Source: an uncultured Candidatus Saccharibacteria bacterium (lineage in GTDB: Bacteria > Patescibacteriota > Minisyncoccia > UBA9983). Taken from it: a stretch of 64,000 bases of DNA. The notes beneath the pieces were generated by a model. The model ran no database searches. It saw nothing but the letters and a program-made list of their open reading frames with translations, and was not told where the DNA came from. Made by a program: the position numbers and the translations under genes. This document shows, piece after piece, positions 3,290-46,853 of this stretch. How positions within the stretch are numbered: the first letter of the stretch is position 1; every line of letters begins with the position of its first letter. The stretch is from positions 792 to 64,791 of the forward strand of contig CAYWCU010000002.1 in the NCBI GenBank assembly GCA_964456855.1, given 5' to 3'.

Positions 3290-3332
3290 AATAAAAAATT
3301 TACAAGCTTCAAAAACTTTTGATCAATTTATT

Positions 3333-6301: not shown

Positions 6302-6311
6302 CCACTAAAAT

Positions 6312-7088: not shown

Positions 7089-7100
7089 CCCAACAAGACC

Positions 7101-8300
7101 GTGAACATATTAAGGAAATTGCAAAAAATGATTAAAATTAAACAAAAAATATCAAATTTTATATTTTCTCCAGAAGTAATCACAAAACTACTCAAACCCT
7201 TTCTTTATTTTAAAAAAAGAAAGAAAGGTGAAATTAAAAAAATACTTATTGTAAGGCTGGACGATATTGGCGATTTGGTATTGACGACACCCCTCATACG
7301 AGAGTTAAAAAGGGCGCACCCTGAAGCAAAAATAGATCTCATTATAAAAACAGAAATTGCCAACCTGTTTGAAATTTGTCCTTACTTGGAAAATGTAATT
7401 CCCTTCAAATGGAGCGGCTATCTAAATATGTTAAAATTCGTGAAAAATAACCTCTGGGGAAAAAAATATGATTTGGCGATAATGCCAAGGTGGGATACCG
7501 ACCTAAAAAAGGCCTCGCTTATGGCATATTTAAGCAATTCCCCGAGAAGAATTGGTTATTCTGAAAAAAACAATAATGACAAAGCGGTAAAAAACAAGAA
7601 CTACGATTTGTTTTTTACCGAAACAATATTGGACAAAACCCTGAAACATGAGGTTGAGAGAAATCTGAAGATATTGAAATATTTAAAAATCAAACCCCGG
7701 TCAAGCAATCTTGAATTGTGGACGAATAAAAACGATGAAATGGCGGTGGGAAGCATACTGGAAGAAAACCAGCTCACAAACAAAAAAATTGCCGCATTGG
7801 GCATAGGGGCAGCGCAGAACAAAAGAATTTGGGCGTTAAAAAATTATGAATTAATCGCCAAGTGGCTGGGAGAAAATCTTGGTTTCAAAATAATAATCAT
7901 TGGAGGGGGGGAAGATTTTGAGGCGGGAGAAATGCTAAAAAGCGGAAACAAGGAAATAATAAACCTCGCCGGAAAAACCTCACTGAGGGAAACCTTCGCA
8001 ATCCTAAAGAAAAGCTCTTTATATGTTGGAAATGATTCCGGGCCTATGCACATATCGGCGGCGACGGGAATACCTACAATTGAAATATCGTGCCACCCAT
8101 TAAAAGGGTTAAAAGAACACGCAAACTCGCCGGAAAGATTTCGCCCGTGGATGAAAAAATATTCAATTGTCCAACCCACTGAAATACTTCATCCGTGCTA
8201 CAATTCATGTATAATGAATAAAGCGCACTGCATAAACTTAATCACTATCAAGCAAGCGCAAGAGAAAATACTTGAAGTGATAAAAGAAAATAATTTATGA
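7101..8300 (+). CDS. glycosyltransferase family 9 (heptosyltransferase-like)
   Basis: KKILIVRLDDIGDLVLTTPLIRELKRAHPEAKIDLI and GNDSGPMHISAATGIPTI are GT9 hallmarks. The true start may be 7128 (MIKIKQ). Confidence 0.75.
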   Translation: MNILRKLQKMIKIKQKISNFIFSPEVITKLLKPFLYFKKRKKGEIKKILIVRLDDIGDLVLTTPLIRELKRAHPEAKIDLIIKTEIANLFEICPYLENVIPFKWSGYLNMLKFVKNNLWGKKYDLAIMPRWDTDLKKASLMAYLSNSPRRIGYSEKNNNDKAVKNKNYDLFFTETILDKTLKHEVERNLKILKYLKIKPRSSNLELWTNKNDEMAVGSILEENQLTNKKIAALGIGAAQNKRIWALKNYELIAKWLGENLGFKIIIIGGGEDFEAGEMLKSGNKEIINLAGKTSLRETFAILKKSSLYVGNDSGPMHISAATGIPTIEISCHPLKGLKEHANSPERFRPWMKKYSIVQPTEILHPCYNSCIMNKAHCINLITIKQAQEKILEVIKENNL

Positions 8301-9229
8301 AATTTTCAATTGTAACTCCCGTTTATAACGGTGAAAAATACATAGCTGAAACCATTGAGAGCGTCCTTTCCCAAAAGGGAGATTTTGAGATTGAGTATAT
8401 TATTATGGACGGGGGTTCAGACGACAAAACCGTTGAAATTATAAAAAAATATGAGGAAAAATTAAAAAATGGATGTTGGGAAACAAAATGCAAAAACATA
8501 TCATTTGGTTGGTTCTCCGAAAGGGACAAAGGGATGTATGACGCAATAAACAAAGGTTTCGCAAAAGCGACGGGTGATGTGTACGCGTGGATAAATTCCG
8601 ATGACATTTATTTACCAGGCGCCTTCGCCGCCATCAGCAAAACGCTCGCGAAATATCCCGAAATTGAATGGATTAAGGGAATCACATCTTTCATAAACGA
8701 AGATTCGACGATTCATGAGGTGGGATTATGTTATTTGTACAATCAACGATGGATTATAAAAGGTATATATGGGAGAAGTGTTTATGTTATACCGCAAGAC
8801 AGCGTGTTTTGGAAATCAGAATTATGGAAAAAAGTTGGTGAAATAAATAATACTTTAAAACTGGCAGGAGATTATTACCTTTGGACATATTTTGCTGAAC
8901 ATACCCCGCTCTATTCATTAAAAGCGTATGTTAGTTGCTTCAGGATACAAGACTACCAACTAAGTAAAAATATTGAACAATACAAAGAAGAGCAACGCGT
9001 ATCATCTCCCCTTATTACCACAGAAGAAAAAATCGCACGGTTGTTTTTTAAGAAAACCAAAAAAATGCCTCTGTTTTTCTATCCCCTTCTTTATGTCGTT
9101 TATAATTTAATATTCAGAAAACAATCACTAGAGGTGATAGAAATCAAAAGAAAAAAACTTGAGAACAACCACATGGGGGCTTATAATAATCCAGTAAAAA
9201 GAAAATCAAAATCATTTATGGTTAGATAA
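8297..9229 (+). CDS. glycosyltransferase family 2
   Basis: FSIVTPVYNGEKYIAETIESVLSQ ... IIMDGGSDDKT ... DAINKG (GT2 DXD region). The start overlaps the GT9 stop. Confidence 0.8.
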   Translation: MKFSIVTPVYNGEKYIAETIESVLSQKGDFEIEYIIMDGGSDDKTVEIIKKYEEKLKNGCWETKCKNISFGWFSERDKGMYDAINKGFAKATGDVYAWINSDDIYLPGAFAAISKTLAKYPEIEWIKGITSFINEDSTIHEVGLCYLYNQRWIIKGIYGRSVYVIPQDSVFWKSELWKKVGEINNTLKLAGDYYLWTYFAEHTPLYSLKAYVSCFRIQDYQLSKNIEQYKEEQRVSSPLITTEEKIARLFFKKTKKMPLFFYPLLYVVYNLIFRKQSLEVIEIKRKKLENNHMGAYNNPVKRKSKSFMVR

Positions 9230-9232
9230 ATT

Positions 9233-10012
9233 ATGAAAAAAACACTAAGAAAACTTCCCTATTACAAACAACTGCGGGCTTACTACAGTATTGCAAGAGG
9301 GGCTTATTCAAATAAATACAACTTTTTCCAAAAGACCGTGCTGTTGAAAAATTTTTTCTCCTACTTGAAAAAATACTCCAAACTGGCCTCAAACAAAAAT
9401 TTTGAATTCAGTTTGGACAACATCTCGCCGCAAATATATGATAATGTCCCCCACTCCCAACAGCTGGATTATGTTTATTTTTATCAAGATACATGGTGCG
9501 CGAAAAAAATCTTTCAAAACAAGCCAGAACACCACTTTGACATCGGTTCAAAGGTTGAAATGGTTGGCATCATATCTCAATTCACGCCAACGACAATGAT
9601 TGATTTGCGGTCACTGGATATCAACTTGCCAAATCTGCAATTCATGAAAGGCGACATCCTCTCTCTGCCGCTCAAAGATAATTCTGTGGAATCATTAAGT
9701 TCCATCTGCGTCATAGAGCATATTGGGCTCGGAAGATATGGTGATCCACTTAACCCTTTTGGCTCGGAAAAAGCAGCGAAAGAAATAAAAAGAGTATTGC
9801 AGAACAAGGGGGATCTCTATATCTCCCTACCTATTGACAATGAAAATAAAACCTATTTTAACGCCCACAGAGCATTTACTCGCAAATATATCTTGGAATT
9901 ATTCTCCCCACTAAAATTGGTTGAAGAAAAATACATCTACAAAAACAAGTTGACGGACAACTATAATTCGGAAAGTGGTTTTGGAACCGGATTATTTTGG
10001 TTTAAAAAATAA
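9233..10012 (+). CDS. DUF268-like SAM-dependent methyltransferase-fold protein
   Basis: DIGSKVEM ... SLPLKDNSVESLSSICVIEHIGLGRYGDPLNPFGSEKAAKEIKRVL resembles the DUF268 / class I methyltransferase family. Confidence 0.5.
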   Translation: MKKTLRKLPYYKQLRAYYSIARGAYSNKYNFFQKTVLLKNFFSYLKKYSKLASNKNFEFSLDNISPQIYDNVPHSQQLDYVYFYQDTWCAKKIFQNKPEHHFDIGSKVEMVGIISQFTPTTMIDLRSLDINLPNLQFMKGDILSLPLKDNSVESLSSICVIEHIGLGRYGDPLNPFGSEKAAKEIKRVLQNKGDLYISLPIDNENKTYFNAHRAFTRKYILELFSPLKLVEEKYIYKNKLTDNYNSESGFGTGLFWFKK

Positions 10013-10017
10013 ACAGT

Positions 10018-10881
10018 ATGATTATAGTTAAATTGCATGGAGGGCTCGGCAATCAAATGTTTCAATACGCCACGGGACGCAGTATTGAAATTACCAGCAA
10101 CACAAAAGTTAAATTTGATTTGTCTTGGTTTAAGCAATTCCCGCAAAGAAAATACGGGCTGGACAAATTCAACACAAAGGTTGATATTGCCAACTTGCTG
10201 GAAATTGCGAGATTGAGAAGGTGGGAGAGGAAAGACGGGCGCCGTTTTTCCCCGCTTGCTCTTTTAAGAAAAAGAGGGGCTATTCACATAAAAGACAGCG
10301 AGTATGCTTCTCAAGAAAAAATATTAAACGCAAGAGATGGTGTATATTTGGACGGACATTGGCAAAGTGAAAAATATTTTGACAAAGTAAAAGACATCAT
10401 CCGCAAAGAATTTATGTTAAAAAATGAACCAAGCGGGCGGTATAAAAACATAGAAACAGAAATCAGAAAAAACAAATCAGTATCCATGCACATCAGAAGA
10501 GGAGATTACACCATGGAAAAAGTTCAAAAAACGCTCGCACTTTGCTCATTAGGATATTATCAAAAAGCAATTCAAAAAATGGCTGAGAAAATTGAAAACC
10601 CAACTTTTTTTATTTTTTCCGACGATATAGAGTGGGTAAAAGAAAATTTAAAAATAGAATATCCAATGGTCTTTGTGAGCAATGACGAATTAAAGGATCA
10701 CGAGGAGCTGATTTTGATGAGCAAATGCGGGCATAATATTATCGCCAACAGCTCCTTCGGATGGTGGGGCGCATGGCTAAACAACAATCCGAATAAAATA
10801 ATTATTACTCCTAAAAAGTGGTTCAAAGACACTTCAAAAAATACAAAAGATTTAATTTCTGAATCTTGGTTAAAATTGTAA
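10018..10881 (+). CDS. alpha-1,2-fucosyltransferase (GT11)
   Basis: N-terminal GGLGNQMFQYA plus HIRRGDY and GHNIIANSSFGWWGAWL motifs are diagnostic of GT11. Confidence 0.85.
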   Translation: MIIVKLHGGLGNQMFQYATGRSIEITSNTKVKFDLSWFKQFPQRKYGLDKFNTKVDIANLLEIARLRRWERKDGRRFSPLALLRKRGAIHIKDSEYASQEKILNARDGVYLDGHWQSEKYFDKVKDIIRKEFMLKNEPSGRYKNIETEIRKNKSVSMHIRRGDYTMEKVQKTLALCSLGYYQKAIQKMAEKIENPTFFIFSDDIEWVKENLKIEYPMVFVSNDELKDHEELILMSKCGHNIIANSSFGWWGAWLNNNPNKIIITPKKWFKDTSKNTKDLISESWLKL

Positions 10882-10883
10882 AT

Positions 10884-11699
10884 TTAATCAACAGATTTTT
10901 TATAATTTTTACTTTCCCAATACTTAAAATCCTTTCTGGGCTTAAGCCCAACAAAAAATTGTATCAAAAAAGCATCTATTGCTCGCATAAAAGAATATTT
11001 GAACCCTCTTTTACCATCCTTGTATAATCTTCTTTTGAAATACAATTTTCTGAATCTATATTGAAAAAACCAAATACCTCTGATACAATGCCCCATAAAA
11101 CTTTTTGTCTTTGGGATTCTTTCAACCTGTAATTCTAATTGCGGGAATATTCGCTGAGGGCGATAAGCATAATGATTCCATCGTTGGCAATGCCAAACAG
11201 GGTAATTAAAATTCATTACTTTGTATGAATGTTCCAAACTTTCATGAACCCTCCCCCTCTCATCAGTTTTATAAAAAATATCTTTGTTGTTTTTTATAAT
11301 TCTCTCGGGATAATCTATTAAATGATTAACATAGTCATCAACTCTCTTTATTTTGGTAACATCTGGATTTTCCTTTTTTAAAAAATTTTTAATGTTACTT
11401 TTGAACTCATTGCTTAATTTTTCGTCCGCGTCCAAAACAATAATAAAATCTTTTGTGGCCTTTTCCATGGCAAAATTTTTGGCTGCACCGTAATGAAAAA
11501 CCCCTTCGGGATGATATTTGTGTAATTTAATATTATTATGTTGTTGGGCGAAATCTTCAATAATTCTTAATATTCCGTCTGATGAACCGGTATCAATAAT
11601 TATAATTTCGTCGGCAAAACCAACCAATGAAGCAAAAAATTCCTTCATCCGCCTTTTTTCATTTTTTACAATTGCACAAACTGAAATTGTTGGCTTCAT
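10884..11699 (-). CDS. glycosyltransferase family 2-like
   Basis: ISVCAIVKNEKRRMKEFFASL ... IIIIDTGSSDG ... VLDADEKL (GT2 N-domain with DxD). Confidence 0.65.
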   Translation of the reverse strand: MKPTISVCAIVKNEKRRMKEFFASLVGFADEIIIIDTGSSDGILRIIEDFAQQHNNIKLHKYHPEGVFHYGAAKNFAMEKATKDFIIVLDADEKLSNEFKSNIKNFLKKENPDVTKIKRVDDYVNHLIDYPERIIKNNKDIFYKTDERGRVHESLEHSYKVMNFNYPVWHCQRWNHYAYRPQRIFPQLELQVERIPKTKSFMGHCIRGIWFFQYRFRKLYFKRRLYKDGKRGFKYSFMRAIDAFLIQFFVGLKPRKDFKYWESKNYKKSVD

Positions 11700-11710
11700 A
11701 AAAATATTTT

Positions 11711-12145
11711 TTATTTAATTAAATTAATAAAAATTTTCCTTCGCGGTTTATAAATTTTGAAAAAGTAAATTTTGTCTTTGACTTCTTTTTTGGAAAATTC
11801 GCCTACCATATCCAATAATTCTTTCTCCTTGTAGCGGTGCTTATGGGTCGGATCTTTTTTCATCAATTTTTTCTTGGACCAATCTTTGTCAACCTTAATA
11901 TCGGCTCTTCCGCCCTTTTTCAAAACCCTGTAAATTTCATCAAAAAATTTCCGCGCCTCGCTCGGGTCAAAATGCTCCACCAAATGCGCCGAATACACTT
12001 CATCAACGCTGTTGTCGCCAAAAGGCAAGTTCAGCGCCGACGCCACGATATCGGGACATGTTTTTTCGTCCAAGTCAACGCCGACAAAACCTTCTCGCTT
12101 ATTGCTTCCGCATCCGATGTCAATTTTTATTTTTTTATTTTCCAT
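11711..12145 (-). CDS. class I SAM-dependent methyltransferase (Methyltransf_11-like)
   Basis: IDIGCGSNKREGFVGVD ... SVDEVYSAHLVEHF ... VLKKGG. Confidence 0.7.
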   Translation of the reverse strand: MENKKIKIDIGCGSNKREGFVGVDLDEKTCPDIVASALNLPFGDNSVDEVYSAHLVEHFDPSEARKFFDEIYRVLKKGGRADIKVDKDWSKKKLMKKDPTHKHRYKEKELLDMVGEFSKKEVKDKIYFFKIYKPRRKIFINLIK

Positions 12146-14296: not shown

Positions 14297-14370
14297 CCAC
14301 GCGTAATTCAGGACATCTTCGCGCGCCTGCCTTGCAATTCTATCAGCAAAATCGGGGTTTTGCAAAACTT
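14297..14370. repeat. direct repeat: duplicated 3'-end fragment of the GT4 gene at 15689-16849, left flank of the AbiE cassette
   Basis: cgcctgccttgcaattctatcagcaaaatcggggtt(t/c)tgcaaaac is near-identical at 14322-14368 and 15757-15803, with weaker similarity further upstream. The reverse strand encodes the remnant ...VLQNPDFADRIARQAREDV.... Confidence 0.75.
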
Positions 14371-15062
14371 TATTTTTCATTCTCTAAGCTGAGTTTCAAT
14401 AAAAATATTATGTCAGTTTTCAGGTTTTTCTTTACATCGTCTTTTTGTTTTTCATCCAAAAGTTCGCCCATACCGCTTAAAATATTTTTATTGCTAATCT
14501 GCTCTAATTTTGCGATACTTTTTTTCAGAAATTCACCAAACTCCATACCGGTCCTATCTTTAATTATTTTCTTATTCACGGGCCAATTATTTTTAAGGAA
14601 AAAGTGAACATCATAAATATCCCTGTTGGTTTTTCCTATCCTTTCATACATAGCCACCAATTTATGGGCGAACATATCCTCGCGAACCATCACAAGCATT
14701 GAAATCCCCAGGTATGATTTTAGTTCATACCGCGACCCGAATTTTCTGAGATTTATTTCAATTTTAATGTTTTGGCTTTTTTCTTTATGGGAAACCAGAA
14801 AAAATAAATTGTATCTCTTTTCTCTGGCGTCTTTTATTTTGCCATAGTTTTTGGCAATATCTTTGACTCTCAAAAAAACGATTTCTTTTTTTGATTCGTC
14901 CAGCAAATCAAAATCAAGATCAACTGAAAAACGGTCAAGACCATAAAATAAATAAGCGGCAGTCCCTCCTTTGAAACCCAAAAAGGGAGATATGTCCGTA
15001 TCGGAATAAATATCCTTAAGAATTCTCAGCAATATGTTTTTATGCTCAACTTTATTTAACAT
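14370..15062 (-). CDS. abiEii: AbiEii/AbiGii-family nucleotidyltransferase toxin (type IV toxin-antitoxin / abortive infection)
   Basis: FLGFKGGTAAYLFYGLDRFSVDLDFD is the DUF1814 AbiEii nucleotidyltransferase signature. Overlaps the upstream antitoxin gene by 11 nt. Confidence 0.8.
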   Translation of the reverse strand: MLNKVEHKNILLRILKDIYSDTDISPFLGFKGGTAAYLFYGLDRFSVDLDFDLLDESKKEIVFLRVKDIAKNYGKIKDAREKRYNLFFLVSHKEKSQNIKIEINLRKFGSRYELKSYLGISMLVMVREDMFAHKLVAMYERIGKTNRDIYDVHFFLKNNWPVNKKIIKDRTGMEFGEFLKKSIAKLEQISNKNILSGMGELLDEKQKDDVKKNLKTDIIFLLKLSLENEK

Positions 15063-21033: not shown

Positions 21034-21456
21034 CTAGGAAAAATCGGCAAGCTTTAGCAGTTTGCCGATTTTTCTTTTCATATTCTCAAAGTCATCCGCA
21101 GAAATCATTCCCAACTTTTTAACCAGTCTTTTTGAATCTATCAGTCTTATTTGAGATAAAATAGCGCTGTTTTTCTTGTTTTTGAGATTGAAATTAAAGT
21201 AAAAAACGCCTGCCTTTTGTTTAGTTGTTAGCGGAACGCATAAAAAAACACTGTTGTTGAATTTCCTCAGCACGACGACGGGTCTGGAAAAATTCTCATT
21301 TTTCCCTTCTTGCTCAAAGCCGATATTTCTCCCAAGGGACGCGTAGAAAATATCCCGTTCTTTGAAAAACACCCGCCGGTCGCGGTCATTCAAGCCCTTT
21401 TTTAATGCGTTCCATTCATCAAATAAATTCATGTTTTTATCATTAGTGTTTGTCAT
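21034..21456 (-). CDS. MazF/PemK-family toxin-like protein, second paralog
   Basis: LFDEWNALKKG ... FSRPVVVLRK ... CVPLTTK ... RLVKKLGMISADDFENM is collinear with the 3333-3722 paralog and with MazF. The start may instead be 21432. Confidence 0.55.
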   Translation of the reverse strand: MTNTNDKNMNLFDEWNALKKGLNDRDRRVFFKERDIFYASLGRNIGFEQEGKNENFSRPVVVLRKFNNSVFLCVPLTTKQKAGVFYFNFNLKNKKNSAILSQIRLIDSKRLVKKLGMISADDFENMKRKIGKLLKLADFS

Positions 21457-21590: not shown

Positions 21591-22106
21591 TCAACTTCGG
21601 TTGGCGATGTTTTGTTTACTTCCGAGCTTCTTCACAAAACCATCCAAAAACAAAAACATACTGTTGTCTTTTAAAACTATTTTTAATAACTTGGAATACC
21701 TTTTGCGAGATGGCACTACTAATTTTCCAAGCTTTTCTTTCTCATTTAAGTATTCCACCAAGCATGCAAAATCCCCGTCACCGCTTACAATTACAGCTTT
21801 ATCAAAATTCGGATACTCAATCATTGTGTGCAAAACAAGTTCAGCGTCAACATTGCCCTTTACGCCCTCGGGATGGTTTTGCACCACGGGTTTAAACACC
21901 ATAACAAAACCCTCTTCTTTTAACTTTTTATATAATTTATCATTCTTTTTTATATACCCGATGAAAAGAAAGGCTTTTTCAACTCCATATTTCTCTTTCA
22001 AATACACGCGAAAGCGGGCAAAATCCAATTTCCAGCCCAAAGACAGTATGCTTAAATTCAAATTCTGGCTGTCTATAAACGCGTAATTTATCTCTTTTTT
22101 GTTCAT
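21591..22106 (-). CDS. NYN-domain (LabA-like) protein
   Basis: AFIDSQNL ... DAELVLHTM ... AVIVSGDGDF match the NYN/LabA PIN-like nuclease domain. Confidence 0.7.
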   Translation of the reverse strand: MNKKEINYAFIDSQNLNLSILSLGWKLDFARFRVYLKEKYGVEKAFLFIGYIKKNDKLYKKLKEEGFVMVFKPVVQNHPEGVKGNVDAELVLHTMIEYPNFDKAVIVSGDGDFACLVEYLNEKEKLGKLVVPSRKRYSKLLKIVLKDNSMFLFLDGFVKKLGSKQNIANRS

Positions 22107-23015: not shown

Positions 23016-24650
23016 CTATTCCCCTGTCTTTATCATATATGTATCCTTGAGCCGGTAGCCGAGTTTTTTGTAATAGCCGCGAACTCCGACTCCTGAAATG
23101 ACCGCCATTTTTTTAAATCCCGCTTTTCGGGCGATTTTCTCCGCCTCGCCGACAAGGGCTTTGCCCATCCCCATATGCTGACTCTGTTCTCCTTTTTGGG
23201 CGATAGGCGCCAAGCGGCCGTAGGTGTGAAGCTCTCTTATTAAGGCGCTGTTTTTGAGAATATCCGGGATGCCGAGCGAAGTTTCAATTGAATCCGGCAG
23301 AAAGAGCCGGAGGAACGCCGCCAATTTATCCCCTTTTTTGTTTTCAAAGCTTAAAAATATTTCCTTTCCTCCCCAAACGGCATATTCAGTTTTTTTGAGT
23401 TTGAAGTCTTTTAATTTTATCTCATCTTCCCTCACCTCGCGACATCGGATGCACTTGCACTTCCATCTGTTTTTTTCTTGGTCGGAGGCGAGATATTGGC
23501 GCAAGTTTGAAATCTTGCTGCCCGCCGCGATGTAACCCCCCGGAATGTCCCTTATCAGTCTTATTATCCTGACATAAGGCGGGATAATCTTTTTTATTTT
23601 AACCAGAAGGTTGAGAAGCTTTTTTTCGGAGTAAGGTTTATGCTCTCCTTTTTTCCACTTGCCGTAAAGTCCCGCGCTCTTCAAAACAACGCAAGGGTAA
23701 ATCTTGAGCATATCCGGGAAAAAACGCTTGTCCGAAAAAAGTTTTTTGAAAGCCGTCAAATCTTTGGCGGGCGAACTTCCGTAAAGCCCCGGCATCATAT
23801 GATAAACTATTTTGAAGCCGAAGGAGCGCAAAAGCCTTGTTGCCCGAGCCACCGTATCCGTAGAAATTTCTCTTCTGTTCTTTTTCAGTATCTCCTCGTC
23901 CGTGTGCTGAACCCCAATTTCCACTTTGGTCACGCCCAATTCTCTCATGCCTTTCAATTCATCCGCGTTTATGAAATCCGGGCGCGTTTCAACGGACATG
24001 CCGACGATTCTGCATTTCGCCTTTTCATTGATTTTTTGAAGTTCGGCGAGGGTTTTCTCGCCTTTCTTTATCGGGCGCGCGCGCCCGATATTATCGCAAG
24101 CGCGAAAAATCTCGGAAACGAAATTTTCCCGATAGGAACGCTTGTAAAAATTCCAGGTTCCGCCTATGATTATTATTTCCGCCTTGTCCAAGGGGTGCCC
24201 ATTCGCATCTAACGCCTTTAGGCGGGAGATGACCTGCTTATATGGGCTGAAATTGTTTCTGAGCGCCCGCGCCGCCGCCGGTTCAAGAGAGAGATAACTC
24301 TTGGGCATTTTTCGCTCCGTGGGGCAATACAGGCAGTTTCCCGGGCAAGGAAACGGCTTCGTGAGTAAAGAAACGGCAACAATGCCGGAATTGCTTTTGG
24401 TTTTTCTTTTTCTCAACAGTCGCTCCAACGCCGGCGATTTTTTCTCCCCTTCTTTATCGGTCATTTCTCTGTAAAGGGCAAGGACTTCGGCGTTTGTGGG
24501 GAGAGGAAGGGTCTTGTATTTCGCCGATGTTCCTCTGTAGTTAATTTTCTTTTTTATTTTCAAAAGACGGCCGGAGAACTTCTCGTCAAGAACCATCCGC
24601 CTTTTCAACTTTTCCAGATCGTCCTCTGTTTTTATTGAATCAAAAATCAT
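23016..24650 (-). CDS. elp3: Elp3-like radical SAM + GNAT protein (tRNA wobble-uridine carboxymethyl modification enzyme homolog)
   Basis: Radical SAM CPGNCLYCP cluster motif, central Elp3-type domain, and C-terminal GNAT fold (HMGMGKALVGEAEKIARKAGFKKMAVISGVGVRGYYKKLGY). The start was set to internal ATG 24650 because the track start 24716 would overlap the divergent neighbour. Confidence 0.8.
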   Translation of the reverse strand: MIFDSIKTEDDLEKLKRRMVLDEKFSGRLLKIKKKINYRGTSAKYKTLPLPTNAEVLALYREMTDKEGEKKSPALERLLRKRKTKSNSGIVAVSLLTKPFPCPGNCLYCPTERKMPKSYLSLEPAAARALRNNFSPYKQVISRLKALDANGHPLDKAEIIIIGGTWNFYKRSYRENFVSEIFRACDNIGRARPIKKGEKTLAELQKINEKAKCRIVGMSVETRPDFINADELKGMRELGVTKVEIGVQHTDEEILKKNRREISTDTVARATRLLRSFGFKIVYHMMPGLYGSSPAKDLTAFKKLFSDKRFFPDMLKIYPCVVLKSAGLYGKWKKGEHKPYSEKKLLNLLVKIKKIIPPYVRIIRLIRDIPGGYIAAGSKISNLRQYLASDQEKNRWKCKCIRCREVREDEIKLKDFKLKKTEYAVWGGKEIFLSFENKKGDKLAAFLRLFLPDSIETSLGIPDILKNSALIRELHTYGRLAPIAQKGEQSQHMGMGKALVGEAEKIARKAGFKKMAVISGVGVRGYYKKLGYRLKDTYMIKTGE

Positions 24651-24672
24651 ATAATTGGTTATACCATAAACA

Positions 24673-25374
24673 ATGAAAGAAGAGTTGGCAAGAAAAATAA
24701 TGGAGGATTCCGCCACCGGCTACGAAAAAATAGCCGAGCAGTTTTCGCGCACCAGATCTTCTTTTTGGAAGGAGCTTGATTTCATCAAAGAAGAAGTGAA
24801 AGGGGGCGACAAAATTCTTGACTTGGGATGCGGAAACGGAAGGCTTTACGAATTTTTGAAAGAGAAAAAGATTGAATACACCGGCGTTGATTCCTCGGAA
24901 AGGCTTTTGGAGTTGGCGAGAAAAAAATACGGGACGGAAGCGAAATTCATAAGGGGCGATGCCCTGAACCTTCCGTTCGCGAACGAGTCCTTTGATAAAA
25001 TAATTTCCATCGCCGTCCTTCATCACATTCCGTCCGAAAAATGGCGGAAAAAGTTTCTGGATGAAGCATGGCGTGTCCTAAAAAAAGACGGGGTTCTCAT
25101 TCTTTCGGTTTGGAATATGAGGCAAAAAAAATACGCTCCCCTTCTCGTGAAATATGCGTTTCTGAAAATCGCCGGGCTTTCACCGCTTGATTTCGGAGAT
25201 GTGCGTCTTGGGTGGAACGGGGAAAAAAATGTTCGCTTCGTCCACGCCTTCGGAAAAAGAGAATTGAGAAAACTGCTGGAGAAGAGCGGGTTTGCGATAA
25301 AAAAACTTTCGGCGGTCCGAAGAAAAAGCGGGCAAGGGAACCTTCTTGCTATAGCTGAAAAAAGAGAAAATTAA
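24673..25374 (+). CDS. Trm9-like class I SAM methyltransferase
   Basis: ILDLGCGNGRL (motif I), NESFDKIISIAVLHHIPS (Trm9/ALKBH8-type AV(I/L)HH), VLKKDGVLILSVWN. Divergently adjacent to elp3. Confidence 0.6.
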   Translation: MKEELARKIMEDSATGYEKIAEQFSRTRSSFWKELDFIKEEVKGGDKILDLGCGNGRLYEFLKEKKIEYTGVDSSERLLELARKKYGTEAKFIRGDALNLPFANESFDKIISIAVLHHIPSEKWRKKFLDEAWRVLKKDGVLILSVWNMRQKKYAPLLVKYAFLKIAGLSPLDFGDVRLGWNGEKNVRFVHAFGKRELRKLLEKSGFAIKKLSAVRRKSGQGNLLAIAEKREN

Positions 25375-25420
25375 AAAGAGGGACGCGGCGCGCCCCTCAA
25401 AGAATGTTCTCTTTTATTTT

Positions 25421-26068: not shown

Positions 26069-27168
26069 TTATCGGGAGCATTTTTCCCAGTCTTTTTTCG
26101 TTTGTTCCAGATATTCGTTTTTACCGAGAAAATTAAAGAGTGTGTTTTCGGCGCTCAGGGCGAGATTCGTCCGCAAAACCCTATCGCCAATCAACTTTAA
26201 AAGAGATTCCTCAAGTTTTTTCGCGTTCCCGACAGGAACGACAAGCCCGCTGTATCCGTCTTTTATTATTTCCCCCGCGATTCCGACATCCGTCATCACT
26301 ACAGGACAATTCGCCACCATCGCTTCAATGACGGTCCTTCCGTATCCCTCGTAATTTGAGGTGAGTAGAAAAAGGTCGGCGGTTTTATAGAAAGAAGCCA
26401 AATCGTCCGTCCAGTTTTCAAAAACGACGTTCGCTTTCAGTTTTCGGCTTTCAGCTTTCAGCTTGTTTTTTTCCGGACCGTCCCCGACTATAATCAGCCC
26501 GGTTTCGGGATATTGCTTGATGACGCCCTTCATCGCCTTAATCGCCATCCCGATGTTTTTCTCTTTCGTGAGCCGGCTCGCCATTAAAATAATGAAGTCA
26601 AATTGCGGATATTTTTCACGCAAGTTTGTTTTAACGGGCGCCTTTTTTATTTTTTCAACATCAACGAAAATAGGAAGAATGCTGACGGCTGACGGCTGAC
26701 GTCTTTCAAAGATTCTTTGATTCTTTGAGAAACAACACGAACTCAATCGGCGTATCTTAAGGAAAAATGGTAAACCAAAAAACGCAGAAAATTTTTCAGA
26801 GATTCTTTTCTGAACCAAGGGCTTGAAAAATCAGTGTGAATTTGCGCTTGAAATTTCGCCTTAAACTTGATTTTTAAAGCCAGTGCCAAAAGGTTCGTCA
26901 TCGCGTCTTGGGAAGTTACCAAAAATTTTCCGCTCTTCAAGAAATTTTTGGCGATTTTGTAACCTTGGACGAAATACAAAAAATTAAAACGGCTGTTCGT
27001 GGGATAAACCCAAGTGTTGCCAGAAATTCGCTCGGCTTTGAAACCCGGCTTCGTATAAACGATAATCCGCAATTCTTCGGTCAACTTTCCGTATTCAACC
27101 ATCCAGGACCGAACATCGGACCCTTCTTGAAAAATATTCTTATCCAAACTGAGCATTAAAACTTTCAT
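26069..27168 (-). pseudogene. GT4 glycosyltransferase, tandem copy 1, disrupted by an in-frame TGA and a frameshift and read as two ORFs
   Basis: N-frame ...SLRYAD-TGA-VRVVSQRIKESLKDV then a shift of frame at the (CTGACGG)x3 tract 26681-26701 into ...VSILPIFVDVEKI... FDFIILMASRLTKEKN ... EGYGRTVIEAM. Copy 2 carries the same lesions. Confidence 0.65.
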
Positions 27169-27200
27169 TGTTTTATTGGTATTATAATAAACATTATAAC
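26213..27200. repeat. ~1 kb tandem duplication, copy 1 (matches 28991-29965)
   Basis: The encoded ORFs are identical or near-identical between copies (for example the 78 aa and 141 aa ORFs). A few substitutions, such as KAERISGNTWVYPT versus EPKQISGNTWAYPT. Confidence 0.85.
26681..26701. repeat. heptanucleotide tandem repeat (CTGACGG)x3 inside the GT4 coding sequence, at the frameshift position
   Basis: gctgacggctgacggctgacg. The identical tract is at 29460-29480 in copy 2. Adding one 7-nt unit would restore the reading frame. Confidence 0.8.
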
Positions 27201-27392: not shown

Positions 27393-27959
27393 ATGCAAAA
27401 CATAATTACTCCCAAAAACTTGTTTACTTTGGCAATACTAGGATTTGTCGCCGTTTTCATTGTTCTGCCACTTACAACTCATGCATACTCGTACAGTGGG
27501 CAAAAGTGGTCAGGGACTACCGTATCAGTAGATGTTTCTGATCCATCATGGCCTAGCGCATGGATTTCTCCGCTCGCAAGTGCAATAAATGCGTGGAATG
27601 CAGCATCATCACCTTTCGCGTTTAATTCCGCCGCGACAGGTCATCAGTTCAAAACTTCAGCAAGTGGTGTAGGTAATCCTCTTGCTGTAACCGCTCGGAC
27701 TCCGTTGTCGGGTAACCCTATTACTGACATGGACACTACATTTAACACATCATATCCTTGGTCCACAAGCGGAGGCTCCAGTGCATACGACGTTCAAAAT
27801 GTCGCAACACATGAATTGGGGCATTGGTTGAGATTGCTTGATCTTTACGGTAGCGGGGACACAGAGGCAACAATGTACTACTCTGTATCTACTGGAGAAA
27901 TAAAGAAAAGATCGCTTGAAACCGATGATTTGGACGGCATTAATTATATTTACCCTTAA
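27393..27959 (+). CDS. secreted zinc metalloprotease, snapalysin/matrixin-like metzincin
   Basis: Signal peptide. HELGHWLRLLD (HExxHxxxxxD as in M7 snapalysin), a Met-turn ATMYY, and C-terminal DLDGINYIYP. GC content is higher than in flanking DNA. Confidence 0.6.
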   Translation: MQNIITPKNLFTLAILGFVAVFIVLPLTTHAYSYSGQKWSGTTVSVDVSDPSWPSAWISPLASAINAWNAASSPFAFNSAATGHQFKTSASGVGNPLAVTARTPLSGNPITDMDTTFNTSYPWSTSGGSSAYDVQNVATHELGHWLRLLDLYGSGDTEATMYYSVSTGEIKKRSLETDDLDGINYIYP

Positions 27960-27982: not shown

Positions 27983-28588
27983 ATGAATAAACAAAATAAA
28001 TTCGTTATATTGCTCGTACTTGGAGTTCTCGCGGTCGGATTTGTAGGTGGCGGTATCGCTTATGTAAATCATCCCCAATCCGAGATTACAAAGACAACTA
28101 TTGATGCCTTATTGGCTTCCATCACTTCTGACGAATTGGTCAAGCAGTCAAATGGCGCAGTGCTCGGGACAGTGACAAATCTTAAGGTGGAGAAAATTCC
28201 TTCAAATATTCGACCAGGGAAAGAAGATATCGTGACTAACGCGACGATTAAAGTTGAAAAATATCTCTACAATCCCGAACAATTAACATCGGATGAACTT
28301 ATAGTACAGGTTGTCGGTGGTGTACTGAGAAGCGAAAGCATGAGCGCAGAAGAGTCTCCGTCATTCAAGATTGGTGATCGGGTTGTGGTATTCTTGTATA
28401 AAAAAGACAAGAGTCAGAGTGTATACACGGTCTATGGTTGGGCGCAGGGTAAGTATACCGTCGACAATAACGGCATTGTAGCTGTTGGAAACGAGTCCAT
28501 CTTTCTACGAGATGTTTTTGGGAAAGAACACATGACGCTTAATGAATTTGAAAACTCAGTTGCGTCGATCGTCTCGAAAATTCAGTAA
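27983..28588 (+). CDS. secreted or membrane-anchored hypothetical protein, co-oriented partner of the metalloprotease
   Basis: N-terminal TM/signal segment FVILLVLGVLAVGFVGGGIAYV, beta-rich, no known domain. Separated from the protease gene by 23 nt. Confidence 0.4.
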   Translation: MNKQNKFVILLVLGVLAVGFVGGGIAYVNHPQSEITKTTIDALLASITSDELVKQSNGAVLGTVTNLKVEKIPSNIRPGKEDIVTNATIKVEKYLYNPEQLTSDELIVQVVGGVLRSESMSAEESPSFKIGDRVVVFLYKKDKSQSVYTVYGWAQGKYTVDNNGIVAVGNESIFLRDVFGKEHMTLNEFENSVASIVSKIQ

Positions 28589-28868: not shown

Positions 28869-28955
28869 TGTTTTTTTCATATTTTCCAAGTATTCGTTTT
28901 TGCTGGGAAGATTAAGAAGAGTATTCTCAGCGCTCAACGCGAGGCTTGTCCGCAG

Positions 28956-29947
28956 TCACTTGTCGCCCGCCATCCTCAGGATAGCCTCTTCCAGTTTTTT
29001 CGCGTTCCCGACAGGAACGACAAGCCCGCTGTATCCGTCTTTTATTATTTCCCCCGCGATTCCGACATCCGTCATCACTACAGGACAATTCGCCACCATC
29101 GCTTCAATGACGGTCCTTCCGTATCCCTCGTAATTTGAGGTGAGTAGAAAAAGGTCGGCGGTTTTATAGAAAGAAGCCAAATCGTCCGTCCAGTTTTCAA
29201 AAACGACGTTCGCTTTCAGTTTTCGGCTTTCAGCTTTCAGCTTGTTTTTTTCCGGACCGTCCCCGACTATAATCAGCCCGGTTTCGGGATATTGCTTGAT
29301 GACGCCCTTCATCGCCTTAATCGCCATCCCGATGTTTTTCTCTTTCGTGAGCCGGCTCGCCATTAAAATAATGAAGTCAAATTGCGGATATTTTTCACGC
29401 AAGTTTGTTTTAACGGGCGCCTTTTTTATTTTTTCAACATCAACGAAAATAGGAAGAATGCTGACGGCTGACGGCTGACGTCTTTCAAAGATTCTTTGAT
29501 TCTTTGAGAAACAACACGAACTCAATCGGCGTATCTTAAGGAAAAATGGTAAACCAAAAAACGCAGAAAATTTTTCAGAGATTCTTTTCTGAACCAAGGG
29601 CCTGAAAAATCCGTGTGAATCTGCGCTTGAAATCCCGCCTTAAACTTGATTTTTAAAGCCAGCGCCAAAAGGTTCGTCATCGCGTCTTGGGAAGTTACCA
29701 GAAACCTTTCACCCTTCAAAAGTTTTTTGGCGATTTTATAGGCCCGCCCGAAATATAAAAAATTAAAACGGCTGTTTGTGGGATAAGCCCAGGTGTTGCC
29801 GGAAATTTGCTTAGGCTCAAAACCCGGCTTTGTATACACGATAATCCTCAATTCATCGGTCAGTTTGCCATATTCAACCATCCAAGACCGAACATCGGAC
29901 CCTTCTTGAAAAATATTCTTATCCAAACTGAGCATTAAAACTTTCAT
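28956..29947 (-). pseudogene. GT4 glycosyltransferase, tandem copy 2, with the same TGA and frameshift plus a degraded C-terminus
   Basis: Same lesions as copy 1. The C-terminal end diverges (EEAILRMAGDK*), with a frame-shifted remnant of the ...SAENTL.NL..KNEYLE... tail in ORF 28743-28937. Confidence 0.65.
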
Positions 29948-29965
29948 TTGTGTTATTGGTATTAT
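28991..29965. repeat. ~1 kb tandem duplication, copy 2
   Basis: See 26213-27200. Confidence 0.85.
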
Positions 29966-30084
29966 AGCAAAATTTTGCCTGAAAATACCCGTTGCACTAA
30001 ACTAGTTAAACAAAAACCGCCATATGTCTGTACACATTACAAAATCACATTGAACTTAAGCCATAAATCCTGTATAATGTTGGT

Positions 30085-39635: not shown

Positions 39636-40772
39636 TTGATAAAAAAACAAGAGGAGTATAATGGAAGTATGAACAAGGGAAAGGCAGAGAAAACAACAAA
39701 GAAAAAACGACCCAGCGCCATTAAGCTCGCGCGAAGCGCGAAGAATCCGATAATTTCTCCAAGAGGAGAAAATGTATGGGAAAACAGACAGACTCTTAAC
39801 CCAGGAGCAATCTTATTGTCCGGCAAAATTCATATTCTTTACAGAGCGATGGGAGACGATTGGCTTTCCCGTTTGGGATACGCCTCTTCCAAAGACGGCG
39901 TTACGATTGACGAACGATTGCTTTACCCAGCCTATGAACATAAAATTTCTCGTCCCGGCTTCAGTTTTTATTCTTGCTCATCGGGAGGCAGTTTCGGAGG
40001 CATTGAAGACCCCCGCCTTATTCGCGTGGGGAATGAAGATACCATACATATGATTTATACCGCTTGCGACGGAGGATTGCGAGTGGGTTTGACTTCTATA
40101 AAAGTGGATGATTTTCTCCAAAAGAAATGGAATTGGAAATCATCCAAAATAATTTCCAAACCGGGAGAGGTTCACAAAAACTGGGTTATTTTCCCAGAAA
40201 AAATAAAAGGAAAATACGCCATTCTTCATAGCATAAGTCCGGAGATTTTGGTGGATTATGTTGATGACTTGGATTTTAAAGACGGAGCGTATATTGAGAG
40301 TTTATGCGGGAACAGATTATATATGGAGGGGGCGAAAAGAATCAACTGCTGGGATAATTGGGTGAGAGGGGCGGGGGCACCGCCGATTAAGACTCGGCTT
40401 GGCTGGCTTCTCCTTTATCAGGCGATGGAGGAAAAAAGCCCTGATAAATTCAAAGTCGGAGCGATGGTTCTTGATTTGAAAGATCCAACCAAAATCCTTT
40501 ATCGCGCCAAAGAGCCTATCCTTGAACCCAAGGAAGCTTACGAAAATAACGGCTTTAAGTCGGGCGTGGTTTATGTGACCGGAGCGGTCGTAAAAAACGG
40601 CGAGCTCTTGGTTTATTACGGCGCCTCGGATAGTTATGTCGGTCTCGCCAAAGCCAATTTGGAAGAATTTTTGAAAGCGCTTTCAAAAGAGAAAAAATCA
40701 AAACCAAAACTCAAATCAAAGAAGAATGATGAGAAGACGAAGACGGAAAAAAAGAAAGGGAAGGTCAAATAA
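39636..40772 (+). CDS. GH130-family glycoside phosphorylase/hydrolase-like protein with a Lys-rich C-terminal tail
   Basis: KNPIISPRGENVWENRQTLNPGAILLSGKIHILYRAMGDD ... GIEDPRLIR ... GAPPIKTRLGWLLLYQAM (GH130/DUF377 beta-propeller). Tail KEKKSKPKLKSKKNDEKTKTEKKKGKVK. Confidence 0.75.
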   Translation: MIKKQEEYNGSMNKGKAEKTTKKKRPSAIKLARSAKNPIISPRGENVWENRQTLNPGAILLSGKIHILYRAMGDDWLSRLGYASSKDGVTIDERLLYPAYEHKISRPGFSFYSCSSGGSFGGIEDPRLIRVGNEDTIHMIYTACDGGLRVGLTSIKVDDFLQKKWNWKSSKIISKPGEVHKNWVIFPEKIKGKYAILHSISPEILVDYVDDLDFKDGAYIESLCGNRLYMEGAKRINCWDNWVRGAGAPPIKTRLGWLLLYQAMEEKSPDKFKVGAMVLDLKDPTKILYRAKEPILEPKEAYENNGFKSGVVYVTGAVVKNGELLVYYGASDSYVGLAKANLEEFLKALSKEKKSKPKLKSKKNDEKTKTEKKKGKVK

Positions 40773-40773
40773 T

Positions 40774-42696
40774 ATGATTATTGAAAGGTATAAAAAAAAT
40801 CCGATACTGACGCCGAACAGCGACCAATCGTGGGAGGCGGAGGCTGTCTTTAATGGTTGTCCGGCTGTAAAGGGTGATAAAACCTTTCTCCTTTACCGCG
40901 CCATTTCTCTCCCCCATTATCATATGGTGGCAAAAACAAGACTTACCGTTTCAGACATCGGAATCGCGGAAAGCAAAGATGGCATCAATTTTACAAACCG
41001 AAGAAGATTCATTATTCCGGAACAGGAATGGGAAAAATTCGGATGCGAAGACCCTCGGGTAACAAAACTGGGCAGTAAGTATTATATCTTTTACACGGCT
41101 CTTTCAGGGTGGCCGCCAAACGCGGAGAGCATCAAAGTAGGACTCGCCATCAGCAAGGACTTGGAGACAATATCCGAGAAACACCTCGTTACACCCTTTA
41201 ACGCCAAGGCAATGGCACTTTTTCCCGAAAAGATTAACGGAAAAATATGGGCGGTTTTGACGGCAAACACCGACCAACCCCCGGCAAAAGTGTGCCTCGC
41301 CTCTTTCAACAAAGAGGAAGACATTTATTCCGAGAAACTCTGGAGCAAATGGTATCAAAATATTGATAAACACGCATTGCCGCTTCAAAGACGACCGCAA
41401 GATCTGGTTGAGGTCGGCGCTCCGCCGATAAAAACAAAATGGGGATGGCTTTTGATTTATTCTCACATCAAAAATTACTATTCAGACAAGAGACTTTTCG
41501 GAATAGAAGCGGTGTTGCTTGATTTGAAAAATCCGCGCAAAATCATCGCTCAAACCGACTTCCCCTTTCTTTATCCGGAAGAATATTACGAAAAACACGG
41601 CATGGTGCCGAATGTCATTTTTCCATCAGGGGCATTGTTGAAAAAAAACAGAATTTTCCTTTATTATGGGTCAGCCGACACCAGTTGCTCATTGGCTTTT
41701 ATTGAAGCGAAAGCCTTTATTGAAAAATTCGTTAAAAAGGACATCGTCTTGACGAAATTGAAAAGGGCAAAGGGAAACCCGATTATAATTCCGAATGAAA
41801 ACCACCCGTGGGAAGCGAAAGCGACCTTTAATCCCGCGGCAATCTACCTTGGCGGGGATGTTCACATCCTCTATAGAGCGATGGGAGAGGAAAACACTTC
41901 CGTCTTCGGCTACGCTCGGAGCCGGGATGGTGTTCACATTGATTACCGTTCGGAAGAACCCGCCTATGTTCCAAGAGAGCCGTTTGAAGAGAAACTCCAG
42001 CCGGGAGGAAATTCGGGCTGCGAAGATCCTCGCCTCGTAAAACTGGGAAATAAAATATATGTATTCTACACCGCCTATGATGGGAAAAATCCTCCGCGCG
42101 TAGCTTTAAGTTGGATTACCTCAACCGATTTTCTGAAGCAAAAATGGAACTGGTCCCGTCCAACCCTTATTTCCCCTCCCGGTATTGACGACAAAGACTC
42201 GGCGATGTTTCCGGAAAAAATCAAAGGTAAATATTTGATAATTCATCGCAGTGGAGACGATATTGACCTTTCTTTCAATAAAAGTTTGGAATTTGACGGA
42301 ACCCACTGGCTGGAAGAATACCGCTGGCTGATGCCGAGAAGAGGGTGGTGGGACTCCAGAAGGGTGGGGATTGCCGCTTCTCCGATTAAAACCGCCACCG
42401 GATGGCTCCTGCTTTACCACGGGATTTCTGAAGACGACGGAGTTTACCGCGTCGGAGCGGTGCTCACCGATTTACGCGATCCTATAAAAATCATCAGCCG
42501 CACGGATTATCCGATTTTTGAACCGGAAGCCGATTATGAAAAGGAGGGGTTGGTCAATAATGTTGTTTTTCCTTGCGGGGCGGCGCTAATCGGCAAAGAA
42601 CTGTTTGTTTATTACGGAGCAGCCGACAAAGTAACGGGTGTGGCGTCGGTAAACATTAATAAGCTTCTTGATATCCTTAAATTATGCAAATGCTAA
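40774..42696 (+). CDS. protein with two tandem GH130 domains
   Basis: Two copies of the NPI(L/I)xP..xxWEAxAxFN...LYRA...CEDPR...GAPPIKT..GWLL(I/L)Y pattern. The start was set to MIIERYKKNPIL (40774) rather than the Arg-rich track start 40726. Confidence 0.75.
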   Translation: MIIERYKKNPILTPNSDQSWEAEAVFNGCPAVKGDKTFLLYRAISLPHYHMVAKTRLTVSDIGIAESKDGINFTNRRRFIIPEQEWEKFGCEDPRVTKLGSKYYIFYTALSGWPPNAESIKVGLAISKDLETISEKHLVTPFNAKAMALFPEKINGKIWAVLTANTDQPPAKVCLASFNKEEDIYSEKLWSKWYQNIDKHALPLQRRPQDLVEVGAPPIKTKWGWLLIYSHIKNYYSDKRLFGIEAVLLDLKNPRKIIAQTDFPFLYPEEYYEKHGMVPNVIFPSGALLKKNRIFLYYGSADTSCSLAFIEAKAFIEKFVKKDIVLTKLKRAKGNPIIIPNENHPWEAKATFNPAAIYLGGDVHILYRAMGEENTSVFGYARSRDGVHIDYRSEEPAYVPREPFEEKLQPGGNSGCEDPRLVKLGNKIYVFYTAYDGKNPPRVALSWITSTDFLKQKWNWSRPTLISPPGIDDKDSAMFPEKIKGKYLIIHRSGDDIDLSFNKSLEFDGTHWLEEYRWLMPRRGWWDSRRVGIAASPIKTATGWLLLYHGISEDDGVYRVGAVLTDLRDPIKIISRTDYPIFEPEADYEKEGLVNNVVFPCGAALIGKELFVYYGAADKVTGVASVNINKLLDILKLCKC

Positions 42697-43213: not shown

Positions 43214-43603
43214 ATGCGAGAATTTCAAGAGAGAAAAAAAATACAAAAAAAAATCTTTTCACCTTTTGCGCTTGCGGCTCTTTTAATTCTCTTTCTTTTT
43301 TTGACCGTCTCAACGGCAAAAATGTATTTAAAGAGAAGAGCGGCGGCGGAAAAAAACAGAATAACCGAACGGCAACTTGTTGAAATCAAAGAAAAGAACG
43401 CGGAAATGAAAAAAGAAATAGAGCGCCTGCGAAGCGATTTTGGGAAGGAAGCGGAAATACGGAAAAAATTTAATGTTCAAAAACCGGGCGAGAAAGTAAT
43501 TGTGATAGTGGACAAAGTGCCGGAAAAAGATAAAATAAATCCAGAGAAAAAAGAGAGCGGTTTTTTCTCGGGCATTTTCAGAGCGATAAAAAATATATTT
43601 TAG
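43214..43603 (+). CDS. FtsB/DivIC-like septum formation initiator (TM + coiled coil)
   Basis: Single TM FALAALLILFLFLTV followed by a coiled coil (QLVEIKEKNAEMKKEIERLRSDF). Start at ATG 43214. Confidence 0.5.
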   Translation: MREFQERKKIQKKIFSPFALAALLILFLFLTVSTAKMYLKRRAAAEKNRITERQLVEIKEKNAEMKKEIERLRSDFGKEAEIRKKFNVQKPGEKVIVIVDKVPEKDKINPEKKESGFFSGIFRAIKNIF

Positions 43604-44166: not shown

Positions 44167-44170
44167 TATT

Positions 44171-45052: not shown

Positions 45053-45059
45053 AAATAAT

Positions 45060-45710: not shown

Positions 45711-45723
45711 TAATATATAACTT

Positions 45724-46851: not shown

Positions 46852-46853
46852 TT

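Follow-up and report, generated by a model that had tools for sequence, protein, structure and literature searches.

A divergently paired Elp3 and Trm9-like methyltransferase in Patescibacteria: a candidate two-gene module for wobble-uridine modification

Can a bacterium carry both enzymes of the Elongator-type wobble-uridine pathway, and carry them as a compact gene pair? This question is raised by a locus in a 64,000-nucleotide stretch of contig CAYWCU010000002.1 (assembly GCA_964456855.1), assigned to an uncultured Candidatus Saccharibacteria bacterium; this whole stretch is called the window below. Here, a gene for Elp3, with radical S-adenosylmethionine (SAM) and acetyltransferase (KAT/GNAT) domains, stands head to head with a gene for a class I SAM-dependent methyltransferase that resembles Trm9. 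In the known pathway, Elp3 makes 5-carboxymethyluridine (cm5U) at position 34 of tRNA, and Trm9 methylates it to 5-methoxycarbonylmethyluridine (mcm5U). An earlier sequence-only reading of the window had taken the coupling of the two genes as a hint that both steps operate in this organism, and the Trm9 likeness of the methyltransferase and the conserved pairing reported here lend support to that hint. We read the pair as a probable two-gene, Elp3-dependent module in which Elp3 would form cm5U34 and the methyltransferase would convert it to mcm5U34, and we place the probability of this reading at about 0.78.

A 2020 review listed bacterial Elp3 only in Dehalococcoides, with no evidence of xcm5U derivatives (PMC7663514), and a 2017 review described the Trm112-dependent methyltransferases, Trm9 included, as being without detectable bacterial homologues (PMC5372719). 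A 2026 paper states that ‘numerous bacteria’ possess Elp3 (PMC13315578). Our literature searches returned no paper tying Elp3 or wobble modification to the candidate phyla radiation (CPR), or Patescibacteria. The pair described here would not be a new kind of system: the pathway is known, and only its occurrence in this host lineage would be previously undescribed.

Elp3 and the methyltransferase encoded beside it

The Elp3 architecture that the sequence-only reading had assigned to the open reading frame (ORF) at 23016–24650 holds in library and structure searches, with the motifs at the positions given in Table 1. The NCBIfam model TIGR01211 (ELP3; cut-off 350 bits) scores the protein at 512.5 bits and aligns residues 41–541 with positions 24–520 of its 522. 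Pfam Radical_SAM and Radical_SAM_C are both found, while the Pfam GNAT models alone stay below threshold (18.5 versus 20.7 bits). The best solved relative in the Protein Data Bank (PDB) is the Elp3 of Dehalococcoides mccartyi (5l7j, E 1.5e-108); the Elp3 of Methanocaldococcus infernus (6ia8, E 6e-106) and yeast Elp3 in the Elongator complex (E 4e-83) are also matched. The radical-SAM motif CPGNCLYCP aligns with CPGKCIYCP of D. mccartyi Elp3, and the acetyl-CoA-binding motif QHMGMGKAL with QHRGLGRKL of the same protein. In 87 aligned Elp3s from CPR genomes and metagenomes, the radical-SAM cysteine triad and the Q, H and second G of the QHxGxG motif are kept without exception. About 80 further residues extend the protein at its N-terminus, and 24 of the first 85 residues are Lys or Arg; the alignment with M. 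infernus Elp3 begins at query residue 51, and that with D. mccartyi Elp3 only at residue 81. In archaeal Elp3, the N-terminal extension is required for tRNA binding (PMC6367351). With these scores well clear of chance, the ORF encodes a full-length Elp3 with intact catalytic motifs, and its family membership suggests that it would form cm5U34.

For the neighbouring gene, the sequence-only reading had pointed to Trm9/ALKBH8-like motifs, ILDLGCGNG and SIAVLHHI. Both are present and the resemblance to Trm9 is real, but it is profile and residue comparisons that establish it, as the motifs alone are not diagnostic: motif I and the class I fold do not discriminate Trm9 from other methyltransferases. 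A profile built from 35 family members places Yarrowia Trm9 (5cm2_Z) first among PDB sequences (87.6 bits, E 7e-24), in an alignment that covers the N-terminal TRxxxW, the HH dyad, the VW..Q segment, the DV..PW strand and the RYYH strand. Comparison of the family with yeast Trm9 by hhalign gives a probability of 99.65%, with residues 15–232 aligned to 12–278 and 30% identity over 200 columns. The yeast query was a 279-residue sequence, which matches 15 of 15 residue numbers in the published mutational study (PMC4678810), and the Yarrowia chain, obtained independently, yields the same alignment. The scores separate the family from other enzymes encoded nearby. A hidden Markov model (HMM) of the family scores the Elp3-adjacent methyltransferases at 143–360 bits and yeast Trm9 at 103 bits, and other class I methyltransferases at the same loci at 21–65 bits. 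In the reverse direction, phmmer with yeast Trm9 matched solely the Elp3-adjacent methyltransferases (25–82 bits) among window ORFs of at least 120 codons and ORFs of at least 150 codons in the collected loci L001–L074. The TRM9 label is already on some family proteins through automated KEGG-style annotation, and the Joint Genome Institute (JGI) pipeline names several of them ‘tRNA (uracil-5-)-methyltransferase TRM9’.

Structure prediction and the published yeast mutants allow a comparison at the level of single residues. The AlphaFold2 model of the methyltransferase (predicted local distance difference test score 93.7) has a seven-stranded Rossmann-like core and a beta-hairpin lid at residues 176–191 (strands 176–181 and 184–191), between beta5 (136–148) and a helix at 195–204. 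The predicted model contains the lid of two strands that Trm9 carries between beta5 and alphaE (PMC4678810). An extra, CPR-specific helix at residues 152–166, not described for Trm9, precedes the lid. Letoquart et al. reported loss or impairment of yeast Trm9 for R29A, D72A, H116A, W145A, W168A, R241A, Y243A and N271A, H116A being inactive, and no effect for H24A, K31A, R122A, E148A, Q149A and D270A (PMC4678810). We counted conservation at the corresponding positions over 72 family members. R28, D73 and W147 of the window protein (yeast R29, D72 and W145) are present in all 72, H118, R188 and N223 (yeast H116, R241 and N271) in 70, and W181 (yeast W168) is Trp in 43 and Phe in 27, so that seven of the eight residues essential or important in yeast are kept in 70–72 of 72 when Trp and Phe are taken together at the last of these positions. 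H117, equivalent to yeast H115 and the first half of the His-His dyad, is kept in 71 of 72. D50, G52–G56 and D73 are invariant, and D73, at the end of beta2, corresponds to the SAM-binding acidic residue D72 of yeast Trm9. The positions that are phenotypically neutral in yeast are variable in the family (H24, K31, R122, E148 and D270) or, for Q149, occupied by Gln in 35 of 72. With Trm9 first in the profile search, an end-to-end alignment, a selective phmmer result and invariant essential residues, the methyltransferase appears not to group with unrelated small-molecule enzymes; profile, alignment, score separation and residue pattern all point to a specifically Trm9-like protein.

The divergent pair in genomes and metagenomes

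Bacterial Elp3 homologues had been said, in the sequence-only reading, not to be usually linked to a Trm9-like partner. This is wrong for the present lineage, in which the link is the norm. Three methyltransferase homologues of about 50% identity, found on long contigs, all stand head to head with Elp3 in unrelated flanks, and the flanking genes of the window differ from those of these relatives; the divergent pair is found in four different flanking contexts at this level of identity. One pair adjoins bacterial ribosomal protein L10/L12 genes, and one sits in a complete 1.3-Mb Kerfeldbacteria chromosome; Kerfeldbacteria MKparc4 (CP181398.1) is among the genomes with the pair.

A scan from the Elp3 side, with one genome per species, gave 66 loci, of which 52 were bacterial, 13 archaeal and 1 an unrelated radical-SAM match. 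The bacterial loci come from metagenome-assembled genomes (MAGs) labelled Patescibacteria, Campbellbacteria, Niyogibacteria, Lloydbacteria, Kerfeldbacteria, Kuenenbacteria, Magasanikbacteria and Peregrinibacteria/Peribacteria, with some labelled Saccharibacteria or Gammaproteobacteria. Loci were taken as assessable where enough upstream DNA was available, and the methyltransferase was counted at a tblastn threshold of 100 bits. On this basis, the methyltransferase lies divergently upstream of Elp3 in 37 of the 45 assessable bacterial (Patescibacteria) loci, and none of the 11 assessable archaeal loci reaches the threshold. An independent scan of JGI metagenomes, from the methyltransferase side, yielded 80 loci, with close homologues defined by at least 150 bits. 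Among the assessable loci, a divergent Elp3 lies upstream of 31 of the 32 close homologues and of 55 of all 70 methyltransferases, and all paired metagenome Elp3s are nearer to CPR Elp3s than to archaeal references. The divergent arrangement is typical of CPR bacteria and not peculiar to this window, and the pair is conserved in related CPR genomes whether it is approached from Elp3 or from the methyltransferase.

Estimated start-to-start distances have a median of 37 bp at the genome loci and of −13 bp at the metagenome loci. At several loci (L005/L006, L007, L029, L035, L045 and L054), the starts of the two ORFs or gene calls overlap by 2 nt in a shared CATG, and there is no intergenic promoter space.

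Two further observations concern the edges of this distribution. Locus L066, from an archaeal MAG, encodes a 198-residue methyltransferase (2939–3535) in divergent orientation, 438 bp upstream of the archaeal Elp3 gene. Its relationship to the CPR family is more distant (77 bits by tblastn, 104 bits with the family HMM): SLHC replaces LHH, and the strand motif reads ERYYYLF. Possibly it corresponds, in this archaeon, to the Elp3–Trm9 cluster known from Sulfolobus. Third-party MAGs titled Gammaproteobacteria or Saccharibacteria (L022, L024, L027, L028, L030, L046, L048, L053 and L064) carry a CPR-type Elp3 that is about 50% identical to that of the window, mostly together with the methyltransferase. 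The organism labels of these MAGs look unreliable.

Proposed pathway and alternative readings

In the proposed module, Elp3 would act alone, in archaeal fashion, as its family membership suggests. Its [4Fe-4S]/SAM site would generate a 5'-deoxyadenosyl radical, the KAT domain would provide an acetyl or acetate unit from acetyl-CoA, and C5 of U34 would be carboxymethylated to cm5U; a mechanism with a SAM-derived radical and acetyl-CoA-derived acetate has been described for Elp3 (PMC13315578, PMC6367351). The adjacent methyltransferase would then O-methylate the carboxylate of cm5U with SAM to give mcm5U34, a step suggested by its residue similarity to Trm9 and by the conserved linkage. R28, H117/H118, W147, W181, R188 and N223 are the residues proposed for this step, with R28 and H117/H118 positioning the carboxylate as proposed for Trm9 (PMC4678810). 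The head-to-head arrangement with a near-zero spacer suggests that the two genes are kept together and are probably co-regulated.

Two other components of wobble-uridine chemistry bear on this scheme, namely the bacterial Mnm enzymes and Trm112. E. coli sequences of MnmE, MnmG and MnmA were used as queries against the window and 154 loci, and the large window ORFs were also scanned with Pfam. MnmE and MnmG turned up neither in these 64 kb nor in the 154 loci, which as genome fragments are uninformative on whole genomes. A homologue of MnmA, the bacterial 2-thiouridylase, occurs at locus L064 (1242–2393), convergent with Elp3 at a distance of 20 bp and 42% identical to E. coli MnmA, and another at locus L081 (about 1330–2337), on the same strand and just downstream of Elp3, with 31% identity. 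The two cases show that some genomes with the pair also have thiolation of the bacterial type, but their number is near chance expectation. Speculatively, bacterial MnmA would add a 2-thio group on the relevant tRNAs, and mcm5s2U would result.

Eukaryotic and archaeal Trm9 depend on Trm112. The Trm112-interface residues L91 and F105 of yeast Trm9 correspond to I94 and F107 in the window methyltransferase, and neither F107 nor D108 varies among family members. The retention of F107/D108 and I94 could reflect a Trm112-like partner or merely the protein core.

The MnmE/MnmG system is otherwise near-universal in bacteria. A wider scheme can be drawn, in which an archaeal/eukaryotic-type xcm5U34 pathway would be present throughout the Patescibacteria as a compact head-to-head Elp3–Trm9 module, whether by early inheritance or by a single acquisition from archaea. 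This pathway would replace MnmE/MnmG, be joined by MnmA in a hybrid route to mcm5s2U, and employ a Trm9 that works without Trm112. We offer this scheme tentatively and hold it, taken as a whole, to be doubtful.

Several results weigh against the mcm5U34 module itself. The Pfam matches of the methyltransferase are to the generic Methyltransf_11/25 only, its best NCBIfam match is to the DVU_1556 family (80 bits against a cut-off of 155), and the NCBIfam and Pfam scans returned no model above a specific NCBIfam cut-off and no Trm9-named model; UbiE-type matches are also among the curated-library results. In a PDB search with the single sequence, Yarrowia Trm9 ranks ninth, and in a Foldseek search of the PDB with the AlphaFold2 model Trm9 again ranks ninth, because the class I fold is ubiquitous. 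Even with the family profile, the next PDB match follows at 79.4 bits, a small margin of 8 bits below Trm9, and uncharacterised archaeal and bacterial methyltransferases score near Trm9 by sequence and fold, 3sm3, 1ve3 and 3l8d being uncharacterised PDB neighbours. The position of yeast Y243 is held by V190 in the window protein and by Tyr, Leu, Val or Phe in the family, the sole mismatch among the required residues. A crude regular-expression motif search of the window found no Trm112-like zinc knuckle, and 8 of the 45 bacterial Elp3 loci have no methyltransferase within 4 kb.

The generic library matches, and the several uncharacterised methyltransferases that score close to Trm9, would suit an enzyme that lies beside Elp3 by chance and has another substrate, whether a small molecule, a protein or a tRNA carboxyl such as that of uridine 5-oxyacetic acid (cmo5U; compare CmoM). 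We regard such a substrate as unlikely, since the linkage to Elp3 preserves its orientation across very divergent genomes and flanks, the invariant residues beyond the SAM motifs coincide with those essential in Trm9, and yeast Trm9 does not recognise the other methyltransferases of the same loci. A different product is a separate matter. The module might act on U34 or on another RNA position and give a different end product, for example through another conversion of cm5U or with the methyltransferase acting before or independently of Elp3, and it would then not be a true mcm5U pathway. The xcm5U derivatives of Elp3-bearing bacteria are of unknown nature (PMC7663514), Grosjean et al. proposed archaeal U34 products that are ‘similar but not identical’ to mcm5s2U (PMC2584109), and the unconserved Y243 and the CPR-specific helix inserted before the lid are in keeping with an altered product. 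Against this stand the conserved carboxylate-positioning residues R28 and H117/H118, the conserved tRNA-binding residues W147, R188 and N223, and the Trm9–Trm112 of Haloferax volcanii, characterised as matching the eukaryotic enzyme in function (PMC6144793); we consider a different product quite improbable.

It could also be asked whether the pair is archaeal DNA that entered the assembly through contamination or chimerism, or else an island acquired recently by transfer, now decaying and without a role in the bacterium. Elp3 is typical of archaea, archaeal Elp3s are 37–43% identical to that of the window, and DPANN archaea co-occur with CPR bacteria. We rejected this explanation as having hardly any likelihood, on account of the bacterial contexts of the pair (the L10/L12 neighbours and the complete Kerfeldbacteria chromosome), its occurrence with intact catalytic motifs in 37 species-level bacterial genomes, the local G+C content, which is in line with the rest of the window, and the affinity of every paired metagenome Elp3 to CPR rather than archaeal references. 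The two-gene mcm5U34 module remains our preferred reading.

The locus, its surroundings and known systems

The features of the locus are collected in Table 1. As the sequence-only reading had reported, the divergent methyltransferase gene begins within 22 bp of Elp3. A longer, GTG-initiated form of the Elp3 ORF extends to 24716; the ATG start is favoured by homologues, which align from its first residue, and by public gene calls of 544 residues. The methyltransferase start is likewise favoured by the conservation of M1 and A6 (at least 90% in an alignment of 35 homologues). Because the start codons are so closely spaced, each promoter would have to extend into the other gene or lie at its border.

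Table 1. Coordinates of the Elp3–methyltransferase pair and of its sequence features in the window
Feature	Position	Strand	Details
Elp3 gene	23016..24650	-	544 aa from ATG; basic N-terminal extension, radical-SAM domain, Zn-Cys linker, C-terminal KAT/GNAT domain
Acetyl-CoA-binding QHxGxG motif QHMGMGKAL, KAT domain	23154..23180	-	Elp3 residues 491-499; from translation
Zn-binding cysteine triad CKCIRC	Elp3 residues 398-403	-	kept in 76/87 aligned Elp3s
Radical-SAM [4Fe-4S] motif CPGNCLYCP (CX3CX2C)	24321..24347	-	Elp3 residues 102-110; from translation
Spacer between the two divergent start codons	24651..24672		22 bp
Sigma-70-like site TTGCCA-17-TATGGT	24691-24663	-	weak; consensus match only
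Trm9-like class I SAM-dependent methyltransferase gene	24673..25374	+	233 aa; proposed cm5U34 carboxyl O-methyltransferase
SAM-binding motif I ILDLGCGNG	24814..24840	+	methyltransferase residues 48-56; from translation
SIAVLHHI with His-His dyad H117/H118	25006..25029	+	equivalent to yeast Trm9 H115/H116; proposed carboxylate-positioning site; from translation
GC-rich hairpin with T-runs, likely terminator	25378..25398		9 pairs, 7 of them G-C; consensus scan only

The hairpin separates the convergent 3' ends of the methyltransferase gene and a gene of the isochorismatase family. The surroundings further comprise an NYN-domain protein, a PemK/MazF toxin, a membrane protein that matches no Pfam family, and a cluster of glycosyltransferase and methyltransferase genes. 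The closest genome is a Candidatus Campbellbacteria MAG.

The PemK/MazF-type toxin (21034–21456) and the NYN-domain protein (21591–22106) lie just downstream of the neighbour of the pair, and an AbiEii-family gene follows further on (about 14370–15062, seen in L001); all three lie among glycosyltransferase and methyltransferase genes. A direct repeat of 1.1 kb with 92% identity occupies 26093–27186 and 28872–29966, and each copy has a split GT1-type glycosyltransferase (ORFs 26069–26818/26743–27168 and 28956–29597/29522–29947). Between the copies are two secreted-looking ORFs, 27393–27959, with a metzincin-like HELGHWLRLLDLY motif, and 27983–28588; the repeat looks like a duplication or insertion within a glycosyltransferase gene. 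The G+C content falls to 0.30–0.36 in two blocks (4000–12000 and 44000–48000), compared with 0.40–0.47 elsewhere in the window. The second block contains a Schlafen/AlbA_2-domain protein (46854–47894), is preceded by a tRNA-Gly(CCC) at 43603–43676, and could be an integrated island. A 235-bp repeat with 96% identity (60080–60314 and 60663–60897) lies inside the tandem paralogous ORFs 60109–60651 and 60692–61243, and two adjacent genes of the mannoside phosphorylase family GH130 are found at 39636–42696, one of which encodes 656 residues with two matched stretches.

Elp3 and a Trm9-like enzyme, tightly linked across a very large bacterial radiation, would extend the Elongator-type wobble pathway to bacteria, and the two small stand-alone proteins could serve mechanistic studies, one of them possibly a Trm9 independent of Trm112. 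The pair also bears on the decoding of split codon boxes in genome-reduced CPR bacteria and on gene flow between CPR bacteria and archaea.

Among known systems, the MnmE/MnmG(/MnmC) pathway of xm5U34 synthesis has the same target, C5 of U34, and is built from unrelated enzymes with unrelated chemistry, MnmE/MnmG being a GTPase/flavoprotein pair that uses glycine or ammonium and methylene-tetrahydrofolate. CmoM, like the proposed methyltransferase, forms a methyl ester on the side chain of U34. The closest parallel for the methyltransferase is with yeast Trm9–Trm112 and the methyltransferase domain of human ALKBH8, which convert cm5U to mcm5U: the Arg of the N-terminal helix, the His-His dyad after beta4, the Trp after beta5, the two-stranded lid with its R-[YF]-x-H motif and the C-terminal Asn are shared, in an alignment that runs end to end. 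Unlike yeast Trm9, the window protein, about 30% identical to it, lacks the long yeast insertion, has the extra helix 152–166 and V190 in place of Y243, and is encoded beside Elp3, in a bacterium. The Elp3 of the window has its CX3CX2C, Zn-triad and KAT motifs in common with D. mccartyi Elp3 (5l7j), the bacterial Elp3 that has been studied, which lacks the basic N-terminus of about 75 residues and is weakly active (PMC6367351, PMC7663514), whereas the window Elp3 has this N-terminus. Like the stand-alone archaeal Elp3s, the window Elp3 has a basic N-terminus and Zn cysteines and would work without Elp1, Elp2, Elp4, Elp5 or Elp6. In archaea, clustering of Elp3 and Trm9 genes has a precedent in Sulfolobus solfataricus (PMC2584109), and Trm9 has been validated in Haloferax volcanii (PMC6144793), where HVO_2888 and HVO_1032 are Elp3 and Trm9. 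The pair described here differs from these archaeal systems in that its host is bacterial, a tight divergent arrangement is the rule in CPR genomes, and the CPR Elp3s form a similarity group of their own.

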